The position numbers and the translations under genes are program-made. DNA of 47,558 nucleotides, from the UHGV virus genome UHGV-1376407. The stretch is one strand, 5' to 3'. Shown here in pieces: positions 3-45,212 of the stretch (position 1 is its first letter; each line of letters starts with the position of its first letter). This DNA is from a virus. Below the pieces are notes generated by a model that saw only the letters and a list, made by a program, of their open reading frames with translations, made no database searches and was not told where the DNA came from.

Positions 3-31
3 TTGATGAATGACGTGGTTTGATGTAGATT
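3..31 (+). promoter_or_regulatory. sigma70-like promoter with the conserved phage box (TTGATG -35, 17-bp spacer, TAGATT -10; box aTGACGTGGTTTGATGTAGATTGA)
   Basis: TTGATG at 3-8 and TAGATT at 26-31 with exact 17-nt spacing. Lies immediately upstream of the first + operon. Same box recurs 10+ times in the window. Confidence 0.55.
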
Positions 32-52
32 GATTCAACGATAAATAGTGAG

Positions 53-367
53 GTGATGAAGATGGAAAATGAATTCAAAGGCACGAAAGGTGAGTGGCTA
101 TGGGAAGAAAATAGTGCCAGCGATCCCAATGATTCAACTTGCATTGAGGTGAGAGCCAGTGGCCCGCAAATTGCTTACCTGCAAAGTTTTACAGATTGTG
201 GTGATGGTCATTCACGCGAAGCAACCATTGCCAATGCAAATCTGATTTCTGCCGCACCTGAATTACTGGAAGCGCTCATTGATGCGTTGCATGCACATGA
301 TAAGCATGGTGAGCATTCCGAATGGGATTTCGCCAGAGAAGCCATCAACAAAGCATTAGGTAAATAA
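53..367 (+). CDS. hypothetical protein, paralog of 18612..18938 (shared MKM(E)NEFKG N-terminus, ANANLISAAPE[LM]LEAL core, KALG C-terminus). Likely true start is ATG 62 after GAGGTG.
   Basis: ORF with RBS GAGGTG. Both protein and 5' leader are conserved with the second copy 18.5 kb away. First gene after a box promoter. Confidence 0.6.
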   Translation: MMKMENEFKGTKGEWLWEENSASDPNDSTCIEVRASGPQIAYLQSFTDCGDGHSREATIANANLISAAPELLEALIDALHAHDKHGEHSEWDFAREAINKALGK

Positions 368-369
368 CG

Positions 370-1326
370 ATGAAAGTCTACCTAAACAACGAACTCAGCA
401 ATGACCAGTATCACGCTGACACAGAGCACATCAATGGCTCTGGCCTGTGGAACATCTATGACAGATGCCCGGCAGCATGGCGCTACAAAGACGAAGAAGA
501 TGAGCAATCAAAAGCTCTTGTCTTCGGCACTGGTAGTCATACCGCACTGCTTGAGCCTGAGCGATTTGAAGCAGAATATGCACGCATGCCAGTTTTCGAA
601 GATTTTCCGAAAGACAAAGATGGCAATCTCACGGTTCTGGTAACTGCGTCTGACATGAACTCATGGGCAAAAGAGAGAGGTATTAAAGGTCTTTCTGGCA
701 AGACTAAAGCCGAGGTGATTAAAATCATTCAGGCCACTGGCGAGCCAGTACAGATTTACGATGTCATCCGCGAACAGGCAGAGAAAGCTGCGGCAGGAAA
801 GCAAATGCTGGAAGGCGATGACTACGACGCCATCATGCAGATGCGCGCTGTAATCCATGCAAACAGCTATTACAGCAGCCTGCTTTCTGGTTCTTATTCC
901 GAGGTGTCAATTCTTGGTGAGTTGCTTGGTGAGCCATCCAAGGTGCGCTTTGACTGTCTTACTCGCGGCGGCGACATCATCGACTACAAAACAGCGGTGA
1001 GCGCCAAGCCTGACGAGTTTTTCCGCCATGCTGCTCGGCTCGGGTACTTTATGAAGATGGCAATGCAACACGATATGTTTGTCGAGGCTTATGGGCACGC
1101 TCCTCGATCGGTAAACCTTCTGGTGCAGGAGAAAAAATCTCCATTCATCCCTGCGTTGATTCGCCTGACGGATGAGCAGTTACGCATTGGTCGTATTCAG
1201 CTTCGCAGCGCGATGGAAATCTATAAGGCATGCAAAAAAGCCAATTCATGGCCCGGCTACTCAATGGGTAATCCGGTCATCGAAATGGAAACTCCAGAAT
1301 GGTTCAAAAAGCAGTTTAACCTGTAA
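370..1326 (+). CDS. PD-(D/E)XK family exonuclease (RecE/YqaJ-like recombination exonuclease)
   Basis: Motifs FGTGSHTALLEPERF and D...DIIDYKT (D/E-x-K). Sits directly upstream of the Sak4-like ATPase and SSB. Confidence 0.6.
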   Translation: MKVYLNNELSNDQYHADTEHINGSGLWNIYDRCPAAWRYKDEEDEQSKALVFGTGSHTALLEPERFEAEYARMPVFEDFPKDKDGNLTVLVTASDMNSWAKERGIKGLSGKTKAEVIKIIQATGEPVQIYDVIREQAEKAAAGKQMLEGDDYDAIMQMRAVIHANSYYSSLLSGSYSEVSILGELLGEPSKVRFDCLTRGGDIIDYKTAVSAKPDEFFRHAARLGYFMKMAMQHDMFVEAYGHAPRSVNLLVQEKKSPFIPALIRLTDEQLRIGRIQLRSAMEIYKACKKANSWPGYSMGNPVIEMETPEWFKKQFNL

Positions 1327-1346
1327 TTTATAGTAAATGAGGTGAA

Positions 1347-43899: not shown

Positions 43900-44252
43900 A
43901 AGTTAACACTCGTGTTACTGCTGCCCTTTATTACGCCATGTCAGGCACTCATGATGGCATGTGGTTCGGATTGCAAGGTGCGGCAGACCAGTGTCTATTT
44001 GATGCGTCAGTGTTTCATTCGGAGGTGATGGATCTTACCCAGGAGTGCTTTAATGGTCATTATTTCCTTTGCTTCAAACGTGGGGTGACGTCTCATGAGA
44101 ATGACTGGAGAGCCATTGCCACTAATTTGATTTATCGCCATGACGGCGCTCACCAGGTACATGCGTGTGGCAAATCAAACACAAAAAACAGAGCGATAAG
44201 ACACTGTTGCAAAGCTATGGATGCAGCCATCAAAAAATACAATCTTGATTAA
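43896..44252 (+). CDS. hypothetical Cys/His-rich protein
   Basis: ATGA coupling; 118 aa. Confidence 0.45.
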   Translation: MKVNTRVTAALYYAMSGTHDGMWFGLQGAADQCLFDASVFHSEVMDLTQECFNGHYFLCFKRGVTSHENDWRAIATNLIYRHDGAHQVHACGKSNTKNRAIRHCCKAMDAAIKKYNLD

Positions 44253-44286
44253 CAAAAACCCTCCATCAGGAGGGTTTGTTTTTTAG
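44253..44286. terminator. bidirectional terminator (AAACCCTCC-ATCA-GGAGGGTTT + TTTTTT)
   Basis: Strong hairpin between convergent genes. The primase stop codon lies in the loop. Confidence 0.8.
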
Positions 44287-45159
44287 TGCTTCGAATAAAT
44301 CACCAGGTGTGTAAAGCCTTTTCCTTATAGCGCCGCTGTAACGAATATCCTGCCCGTCATCGGTAATCAGTATCGGCAGACCTGCATTCTCTGCGGCGCA
44401 TACCTCATCGAAATTATTATTAATGATGCAGCGCAGTTTTTCTCGCTGCTCACCGCTGACATTGCGTACAATTTCCCACATGTTTTCAGGAGACCAGCAA
44501 CACCAGACATGAGCACCGGTAAGCCGATGCGCTCTCCATGCGTCAAAGTAATCTGCAACCAGGTATGTCCACTCTGTCTTGTCGCCGATGGGTGTCACTG
44601 CGCCGCGTGTAAGCCTTCCGCGAGTGTACTCATGACTGAAACCCGCGCGAAATGACACGCTTTCATCGTCAGCAATGAATGCCACATTGCACGGCATCAT
44701 AGTTCCAGCCATGTAGAGCGGTATCGCCACCAGTTCACCAGTTTTGCCGGTTATGGTGTCATTTCCTGCTTTTTCCAAGATGGACGCCACTTCTGCCTCT
44801 GTTAGGTAGTCAGAAGCATGGTTGACCTTCGGGAGCTGCTTTCTAATCGCCTCAAGTTTTTCGCGTGGGTGCATGTTAAGAAACCCGGCCAATGCCTCCA
44901 TTGACTCCGGAAAAGTCATTCCTGACAGCTTCATTAACCAGGCGATGCCGCTGCCGTTTCCGCACTGGTTGCAGATGGCGCCGCCGTCACCTTTTGTTTC
45001 GAAGTTGTTATCCCACCTAAACCTGTCCTTACCCATGCAATGAGGGCATGGCTGATGCTTTCCATTAAAAACATTCCTGTCAATATTCACTATTGAGAGT
45101 AGAGCAGCCTCCCAGTTTCCTGCCATTAAAGGCTCTATATCCTTCCAGTCGTATCGCAT
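44266..45159 (-). CDS. DNA primase (zinc-ribbon plus Toprim-like)
   Basis: N-terminal zinc ribbon HQPCPHCMGKDRFRWDN...CNQCGNGSG (primase/P4-alpha type). Acidic ILITDDGQD Toprim-like motif. Confidence 0.65.
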   Translation of the reverse strand: MRYDWKDIEPLMAGNWEAALLSIVNIDRNVFNGKHQPCPHCMGKDRFRWDNNFETKGDGGAICNQCGNGSGIAWLMKLSGMTFPESMEALAGFLNMHPREKLEAIRKQLPKVNHASDYLTEAEVASILEKAGNDTITGKTGELVAIPLYMAGTMMPCNVAFIADDESVSFRAGFSHEYTRGRLTRGAVTPIGDKTEWTYLVADYFDAWRAHRLTGAHVWCCWSPENMWEIVRNVSGEQREKLRCIINNNFDEVCAAENAGLPILITDDGQDIRYSGAIRKRLYTPGDLFEALKNKPS

Positions 45160-45179
45160 AATTTAACCTTGATTATTGC

Positions 45180-45212
45180 CGTAGATTCAGTCTACTATTG
45201 TGACGTAGATTG
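45180..45212 (+). promoter_or_regulatory. box elements (GCCGTAGATTCAG ... TGACGTAGATTGA) in the primase/helicase divergent region
   Basis: Two CGTAGATT boxes 24 bp apart. Confidence 0.4.

Follow-up and report, generated by a model that had tools for sequence, protein, structure and literature searches.

The virus genome UHGV-1376407 (47,558 bp, analysed here over its whole length and called the window below) is the whole genome of a Roufvirus-like Klebsiella siphophage, and it carries many copies of an asymmetric 13-bp box that, from their sequence and placement, are very probably phage promoters. The explanation that we prefer, to which we give a probability of about 0.45, is that these are early promoters in which a regulator encoded by the phage, probably a repressor that shuts them off, has its site embedded. 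Phage-specific families of promoters and operators are already known; in the accessible literature we found no description of this motif, and a search with the sequence string gave only irrelevant primer matches.

The box is strongly enriched and nearly confined to the DNA between genes. With up to two mismatches, TTGACGTAGATTG is found 12 times in the window against an expectation of 1.17 (none of 100 shuffles reached 12), exact GTAGATT is found 18 times against 4.1, and a 13-column weight matrix gives 13 matches of at least 14 bits against 0.48. Twelve of these 13 are intergenic in a window that is 7.2% intergenic DNA, and all 12 have a gene start in the same direction less than 130 nt away. 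The matrix scan, which a preliminary description of this DNA had proposed for the window and its relatives, finds 87 boxes in seven genomes, of which 80 are intergenic and 70 have a gene start in the same direction within 130 nt. That description had listed at least eleven promoter-like elements sharing the 13-mer, each intergenic and at the head of a transcription unit. The enrichment is confirmed and every listed copy is present at or near its listed position; an equal density of the motif in coding DNA, which had been named as counter-evidence, is not seen, only one of the 13 strong matches (at 22815) being coding. The placement at unit heads stands for most copies and falls for the one at 39018-39028, which is antisense between − strand genes and beside a terminator.

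Most + strand units open at a box and close at a hairpin terminator (near 2908, 14670, 21773, 29211, 32136 and 37089); the unit 41972-44252, which ends at the 44256 hairpin, has no strong box at its start. The box-headed units carry recombination, replication, methylase, anti-restriction and small unknown genes, and the structural and lysis operons have no boxes in their own orientation. Generic scans of the window for the sigma-70 consensus came out near chance (35 versus 30, 27 versus 26 and 17 versus 14), so the signal is the box family and not the consensus hexamers as such. The putative promoters, P1 to P11, and two further boxes are as follows:

P1, 3-32, + strand: −35 TTGATG (3-8), 17-bp spacer, box TTGATGTAGATTG (20-32) with −10 TAGATT (26-31); its unit holds gene 62-367 and exonuclease, ATPase and SSB genes and closes at the hairpin near 2908.
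P2, 13476-13506, + strand: −35 TTGACA (13476-13481), 18-bp spacer, box CTGACGTAGATTG (13494-13506) with −10 at 13500-13505; unit 13536-14628, terminator 14670-14689.
P3, 15495-15524, + strand: −35 TTGACA, 17-bp spacer, box GTGATGTAGATTT with −10 at 15518-15523; heads open reading frame (ORF) 15610-16491.
P4, 18561-18603, + strand: box TTGACGTAGATTG (18561-18573) as −35, 17-bp spacer, TATAGT (18584-18589), and a further partial (third) box ATGACGTAGAAAC (18591-18603) around the expected start site; unit 18630-21771, which includes a ParB-like gene.
P5/P6, 27875-27914: inverted pair of boxes facing outward with a 14-bp gap, GTGTTGTAGATTG on the − strand (27875-27887) aimed at gene 27847 and TTGACGTAGATTC on the + strand (27902-27914) aimed at gene 27944; neither box has a partner hexamer at 16-18 bp.
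P7, 30556-30592, + strand: box TTGACGTAGATTG (30556-30568) as −35, GATGAT at 17 bp, second box ATGATGTAGATAC (30580-30592) at an offset of 24; unit 30613-32132, terminator 32136-32157.
P8, 36299-36352, + strand: degenerate box GTGATGTAGTTAT (36299-36311), box TTGACGTAGATTC (36323-36335) as −35 and, at an offset of 17, box ATGGCGTAGATTA (36340-36352) with −10 at 36346-36351; heads 36378-36668.
P9, 36682-36711, + strand: tandem boxes at an offset of 17, TTGACGTGGATTC as −35 and then TTGATGTAGATTG with −10 at 36705-36710; unit 36731-37081, with hairpin 37089-37104 at its end.
P10, 41516-41544, − strand: box TTGACGTAGATTG (41544-41532) as −35, 17-bp spacer, TATAGT (41521-41516); unit of − strand small genes from 41484.
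P11, 45176-45212, + strand: boxes TTGCCGTAGATTC (45176-45188) and GTGACGTAGATTG (45200-45212) at an offset of 24; heads the helicase gene 45234-47168.
Orphan weak box, 39019-39031, + strand: ATGGCGTAGATAA, 8.2 bits; antisense to the − strand genes around it and followed by no + strand gene; adjoins the − strand terminator hairpin 39037-39054 and a − strand TGTTAATAT element (39009-39017).
Coding-region match, 22815-22827, + strand: TTGACGAAGATTC, 17.6 bits, with A at position 7; antisense within gene 22661-22855.

The coding-region match is the sole strong box inside coding DNA, was missing from the earlier list and is probably non-functional; the orphan box is kept in the related phages pIS4-A and KP591P1 and not in GP-1.

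Most of the boxes have the geometry of promoters for host sigma-70 polymerase. If a −35 is required to match TTGACA at four or more of six positions, a −10 to have A at position 2 and T at position 6, and the two to be 16-18 bp apart, then P1, P2, P3, P4, P7, P8, P9 and P10 qualify, P11 is ambiguous (TTGATT-18-TACTAT is another possible core) and P5 and P6 fail; seven promoters were recovered independently by a plain −35/−10 scan. Three layouts occur. The box may lie at the −35, where TTGACG-TAGATTG is followed by TATAGT or CATAGT 17 bp past the hexamer (P4, P10), or at the −10, where TTGACA or TTGACT and a 17-18-bp spacer precede nTGRYG-TAGATT (P2, P3, P1), or two boxes may lie 17 bp apart, the first as −35 and the second as −10 (P8, P9 and several promoters of Salmonella and E. 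coli phages). Among distinct promoters 17 bp is the commonest box-to-box offset, with 24-25, 29-31 and 10 bp rarer. The last −10-like hexamer is 20-41 nt ahead of the start codon, P3 excepted, and the leaders are short with a clear ribosome-binding site.

That sigma-70-compatible hexamers stand 17 bp apart, as previously proposed for this DNA, holds in most copies, and the exact succession of −35, 17 bp and TAGATT or TATAGT is found at 3-31, 15495-15523, 18561-18589, 36323-36351, 36682-36710 and 41544-41516; it is not found at 13476-13505, where the spacer is 18 bp, nor at 27902 (+) and 27887 (−), which have no partner hexamer. The second box said to lie 17 bp downstream is 24 bp away, start to start, at 30556 and 45176, and the −35 given as TTGACG is TTGACA at 13476 and 15495, where the box supplies the −10 only. 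The suggestion that varied spacing betrays a dimeric operator is not supported: the box is asymmetric and always co-oriented with transcription, and the dominant offset of 17 bp sets TTGACG and the next TAGATT at the optimal spacer, which indicates promoter geometry rather than a dimeric operator. We also rejected a reading of TGAYG as part of an extended −10, its TG sitting at −17/−16 and not at −15/−14, so that it is not placed like the known TGn element. The box does not, to our knowledge, resemble the sites of FNR, IHF, MetJ, DnaA or CRP.

Conservation extends past the hexamers, as the preliminary description had also seen, and it couples the two halves of the box. Promoters were gathered solely by the pattern TTGAC[AGT]-N17-[TC]A[TG]A[ATG]T and clustered by flank identity, which avoids the circularity of selecting with the 13-mer. 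The next four bases are (T/C)(A/G)GA in 13 of the 14 clusters with the non-consensus hexamer TTGACG and in none of the nine with TTGACA or TTGACT; TGRYG precedes 16 of 17 TAGATT −10 elements and none of the three TATAGT ones. Flank-anchored footprinting had usable depth only for P2 and P5/P6, and pattern-anchored collections were used instead. At P2, the CTGACG ahead of the −10 is invariant in 28 unique orthologous sequences, whereas the neighbouring spacer is variable, and at P4, 34 of 36 unique sequences keep the TAGATTG that follows the −35, whereas the 10 nt beyond it vary. For boxes in the −35 register, no usable −35 was found 16-18 bp upstream of their TAGATT. By these alignments the module clearly acts as one unit with a constraint of its own, which is the chief argument for a second reader. 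Since the half that sigma-70 should be able to dispense with is conserved too, the module may well be the binding site of a second reader; that some such reader, of whatever kind, uses the box is on balance probable, and it is probably encoded by the phage. The additional shared DNA-binding regulator suggested earlier for these elements is therefore plausible from the coupled conservation.

The mechanism that we propose runs as follows. About eleven early or middle promoters would be read by host sigma-70 polymerase, with the boxes as their cores. The unit would be a 13-bp asymmetric module, (T)TGAYG-TAGATT(G), used in two registers: in one its 5′ half would act as the −35, with TTGACG and then TAGATT, TATAGT or CATAGT 17 bp downstream, and in the other its 3′ half would act as the −10, with TTGACA or TTGACG 17-18 bp upstream of TAGATT; two boxes 17 bp apart could supply both hexamers. 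A second sequence-specific reader would also bind the module and, as its site lies on top of the −35 or −10, would most likely be a phage-encoded repressor that shuts off the early regulon in a coordinated way. Occupancy of the boxes, or a halt of −35-dependent initiation, might then release the late promoters. We infer the transcription itself, its temporal class and the second reader with its sign from the features described above.

Candidates for such late promoters are extended −10 elements, TGnTAnAAT with no recognisable −35, which lie on the opposite strand immediately upstream of box promoters; further elements of the same class precede structural operons or, once, lie beside the orphan weak box:

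13467-13475, − strand: TGGTATAAT, divergent tail-operon promoter, abutting the P2 −35.
15484-15492, − strand: TGATATAAT.
18545-18553 and 30539-30547, − strand: TGATAAAAT.
36332-36340, − strand: TGCTAGAAT.
25893-25901, − strand: same class, before the capsid operon.
34555-34563, − strand: same class, before the portal operon.
5889-5897, − strand: same class, before the tail-fibre operon.
39009-39017, − strand: TGTTAATAT, same class, beside the orphan weak box.

Genome-wide, 14 of the 15 matches to TGNTANAAT are on the − (structural-gene) strand, and six relatives have this class with the same strand bias. Six box-promoter regions are back-to-back and overlapping with −35-less extended −10 promoters of structural or lysis operons, and in four back-to-back pairs the −35 of the box promoter is only 0-8 nt from the TG of the divergent promoter, so two polymerase footprints must overlap. 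This suggests a design of boxed, −35-dependent early promoters and −35-independent late ones, in which silencing the first would favour the second. In its fullest form the idea becomes a genome-wide early/late toggle, with the module as both promoter core and operator for a phage winged-helix or ParB-like protein that would turn the approximately eleven early units off and the structural and lysis operons on; this extension we consider unlikely. We considered and dropped the idea that the reverse-complemented box plays a fixed part in the late promoters, as its distance to the extended −10 TG varies (about −1, 1, 7, 8, 18 and 19 nt).

The window is ~91% identical over ~60% of its length to Klebsiella phages GP-1, KP591P1/P3, ZCKp20p and MK54 and Aeromonas phage pIS4-A (genus Roufvirus), and large-terminase searches extend the clade to Salmonella phages EI_sp1, SeSz-2, LPSTLL and Vi II-E1 (Macdonaldcampvirus), E. 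coli phages C1, swi2, Bas80 and ECO111 5-P and Shigella phage DS8. Its − strand holds the structural and lysis genes, and interspersed among these operons are short units, most of them on the + strand, that consist of replication, recombination, methylase and anti-restriction genes and of many small ones; an Rfam search of the window gave no family anywhere. Close relatives have box densities comparable to that of the window (~1 to 4 per 10 kb), and the box is also present in Salmonella EI_sp1, E. coli ECO111 5-P, Salmonella Vi II-E1 and 74 IMG/VR loci with differing flanks. Full-length IMG/VR loci fetched through the ParB-like gene keep the box down to 68% identity of that protein; the box is absent where the ParB-like protein is only ~43% identical, and from phages Jersey and K1G and loci L200-L204. 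(An exact 14-mer scan of IMG/VR returned relatives mixed with chance matches and was little used.) Relatives among the phages of Klebsiella, Salmonella, E. coli and Shigella, whose flanking DNA is often unalignable, still keep the 13-mer and the 17-bp tandem register. Judged by this distribution the box family is ancient and spans the clade, and the earlier alternative of a recently amplified promoter cassette does not survive the presence of the box in relatives with differing flanks.

It is possible, if somewhat unlikely, that these are plain sigma-70 promoters with no extra reader, the 13-mer being the legacy of a 17-bp tandem duplication whose copies were spread and homogenised by recombination, as in the PeSL (early promoter + stem-loop) cassettes of other phages. 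A tandem offset of 17 bp yields the optimal spacer automatically, and similarity among relatives breaks exactly at the box at P2, P3, P4 and P7. At P4 the whole cassette, box to ribosome-binding site, hardly varies in 36 unique sequences whose upstream context and first gene differ. P1 and P4 have a common leader, and their first genes (62-367 and 18630-18938, both + strand; phrog_1273) are paralogous, sharing ANANLISAAPE(L/M)LEAL and the start context GAGGTGATGAAGATG. PeSLs are moreover a precedent for modular shuffling mediated by repeated strong early promoters (PMC2839356). The cassette or moron idea of the preliminary description keeps this much, namely breakpoints at the box in four promoters and two promoters that precede paralogous genes; a recent burst is not part of it. 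Plain sigma-70 promoters fit less well with the intragenomic identity of the copies, which ends at the 13-mer, so that spacers and flanks are not homogenised, and with the fixation of the same 13 bases at orthologous sites across genera while their neighbours drift. Nor do they account for a TTGACG that deviates from the consensus A solely where TAGA follows, or for an “unused” TAGATT without a −35 of its own.

Two features of these cassettes may be added here. In relatives P3 heads genes for tRNA-Met, tRNA-Arg and tRNA-Ser, and here, in a window with no tRNA genes, it heads ORF 15610-16491 (+ strand), whose 293-aa product has T5orf172/MUG113 and treble-clef zinc-finger domains and is endonuclease-like. 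The P4 leader at 18590-18629 (+ strand), GATGACGTAGAAACAACAATAAATGTTAGAGGTGATGA, is near-invariant in 36 unique sequences from the whole clade, more than a ribosome-binding site alone would need.

For the embedded-operator reading, three clade-conserved proteins of predicted or apparent DNA-binding fold, encoded behind box promoters, are candidate readers:

19751-20566, + strand: ParB/KorB-like helix-turn-helix (HTH) protein, 271 aa, predicted to be made from P4.
26649-27119, − strand: tandem winged-helix protein, 156 aa from the conserved start codon, predicted to be made from P6.
27944-28144, + strand: 66-aa protein, first gene beside the inverted box pair.

The ParB/KorB-like protein shows ~81% identity over the clade; its HTH segment corresponds to that annotated in phage E1 and also matches, below threshold, sigma-70 region 4. 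The P5/P6 control region is flanked by two predicted winged-helix proteins, the 156-aa tandem one and the 66-aa winged-helix-like one. The former is found only in the box-bearing clade and is modelled as two winged-helix domains in tandem (pLDDT 77.6); a fold search with the model gave generic winged-helix matches only, and a sequence search against the PDB nothing meaningful. The tandem winged-helix fold is shared by iteron-binding replication initiators, and this protein might instead bind the GTTCCC iterons at 41586-41852 (below). As a reader it would suit an asymmetric site recognised by a monomer, by analogy with a mycobacteriophage repressor (PMC9283540). The 66-aa protein, whose identity across the clade is 52-55%, is modelled with a winged-helix-like fold (pLDDT 82.8). 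Of the two regulators put forward earlier, the 69-aa winged HTH protein at 20563-20772 is excluded because six relatives with the box have no homologue of it, and the protein at 26649 is still a candidate.

Several observations weigh against a dedicated repressor. P5 and P6 consist of the box only, without a −35, which favours an activator or a modified polymerase over a repressor. The phage appears virulent, no integrase being annotated in four relatives, so a classical immunity repressor is not expected. The clusters used to measure the coupling are not fully independent and reduce to roughly nine versus four distinct promoter families; the promoters compared are in part of common descent and therefore less independent than the coupling counts make them look, and unit-wise duplication and recombination could yield part of the coupling. 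Palindromes are the normal targets of ParB-type HTH proteins, the tandem winged-helix protein has only ~36% identity across a clade in which the box is unchanged, and the fold matches of the 66-aa protein are weak and generically winged-helix (best E = 0.29). Each of the three candidates is thus imperfect, and on these models and comparisons none is preferred with confidence.

The first of these observations leads to an explanation that we think quite unlikely, in which the box is a self-contained element read positively by a phage activator or a phage-modified polymerase (through sigma appropriation or a small sigma-like protein), so that each box would be its own start signal, tandem boxes would be tandem starts and P5/P6 would work as middle promoters. 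Neither P5 nor P6 has a −35 at 16-18 bp, yet there are two divergent genes to drive from a 96-bp gap, and the box-only, outward-facing layout is kept across the clade; its arrangement and 14-bp gap are the same in L120 (around 23327-23354), L124 (24013-24052) and L125 (7657-7695). The strict co-orientation of box and gene would suit a polymerase-linked reader, and TGRYG directly before TAGATT acts like a −10 extension, but TGAYG is not at the position established for TGn, an activator site over the −10 would be atypical, and most box promoters, with a near-consensus −35 and −10 at 17 bp, can do without an activator. Of the 20 proteins scanned, which are part of the proteome, none is sigma-like or MotA/AsiA-like, bar the sub-threshold match to sigma-70 region 4 on the ParB-like HTH. 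In the P5/P6 region (27862-27930) the gap holds GTCAATAC or TATTGAC, with a short palindrome GTCAATA..TATTGAC in some relatives; TGGTACAAT lies on the + strand at 27870-27878, and in the hairpin check P5 has TTGACGTAGATTCGTCAA.

That the boxes are not primarily transcriptional, and are dispersed ParB/KorB-like sites (for partition, condensation or silencing) or sites for replication or packaging whose promoter look is incidental, is very improbable: a conserved ParB/KorB-type HTH protein is encoded in every box-bearing genome and the box vanishes in loci where that protein falls to ~43% identity, but the box is asymmetric, with no parS- or OB-like palindrome, each copy has promoter geometry and points the same way as a gene start 20-90 nt downstream, and the likely origin lies elsewhere, at a different repeat.

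Among known systems, the embedded-operator reading has a close counterpart in dispersed asymmetric operators of the L5 gp71 or P1 C1 type, with which the box shares a length within 13-17 bp, many copies and an orientation tied to transcription. The operators and stoperators of cluster A mycobacteriophages (L5 gp71) are likewise asymmetric 13-bp sites, scattered over the genome and oriented with transcription, and the operator of an L5 early promoter reportedly embeds the −35 hexamer TTGACA. In the structure of the TipsytheTRex repressor, a monomer reads its site with two DNA-binding domains (PMC9283540). Stoperators, however, lie mostly in transcribed regions and block elongation, whereas the boxes lie in promoter cores, with one strong coding match (22815); and cluster A phages are temperate with an immunity repressor as reader, whereas here no integrase or immunity repressor is apparent.

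T4 middle promoters combine a MotA box with a sigma-70 −10 and involve AsiA. They are alike in that a phage-specific box near −30 and a host-type −10 define a temporal class, and differ in that the MotA box takes the place of the −35, whereas here the box contains the −35 consensus and also lies over the −10; the MotA and AsiA families had no match in the 20-protein scan. Protein p4 of phi29 flips back-to-back early and late promoters, and KorB of RK2 governs a global regulon. In those systems one DNA-binding protein turns down several early or housekeeping promoters, and a KorB-type HTH protein is encoded here; but KorB operators are palindromic and p4 sites are inverted repeats upstream, whereas the box is asymmetric and within the core, and the mechanism here is a proposed one. 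By the standard of ParB-parS or KorB-OB sites the box falls short, being strictly oriented and not palindromic, though a ParB/KorB-type protein is present.

The PeSL cassettes of the T4-type phages RB49 and phi1 (Arbiol et al. 2010, PMC2839356; PMC4122927) offer a further likeness: many copies of a strong, conserved, sigma-70-like early promoter stand before small non-structural genes that vary, mark mosaic junctions and come with terminators insulating the late operons. Here, however, most copies have no integral stem-loop, the hairpins closing units and abutting the promoter in some relatives; the repeated element is a short 13-mer in two registers, in ~11 copies, against a 50-60-bp composite in ~50; and the units sit antisense between the late operons of a siphovirus.

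Roufvirus-like and related siphophages are under development against Klebsiella, Salmonella and E. coli. The box offers a ready map of the early regulon, and with the extended −10 class added it yields a model of the early-to-late switch that can be tested; the boxes also mark points at which accessory genes are swapped between relatives. If there is a dedicated reader, the module would be a compact operator that embeds both polymerase hexamers, and could serve as a portable, phage-controlled promoter part for Enterobacteriaceae.

Other repeats and structures were seen in the course of the analysis. Where + and − strand units converge there are GC-rich hairpins with T runs on both strands, which look like bidirectional terminators:

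14670-14689, bidirectional terminator-like hairpin.
21773-21794, bidirectional terminator-like hairpin.
22636-22657, bidirectional terminator-like hairpin.
29211-29231, bidirectional terminator-like hairpin.
32136-32157, bidirectional terminator-like hairpin.
44256-44277, bidirectional terminator-like hairpin.

At 41586-41664 there are at least seven copies of (A/G)GTTCCC(G/A), and at 41772-41852 at least five copies of the complement GGGAACT. These iterons lie on either side of a segment very rich in AT that contains small palindromes (41665-41765), a little upstream of the helicase unit at 41972, and the region 41586-41852 is a probable replication origin. The Escherichia phage K1G (L123), which is without the box, has an unrelated 8-mer, ACGGCAAC / GTTGCCGT, 22 times per strand count, far above any other 8-mer.

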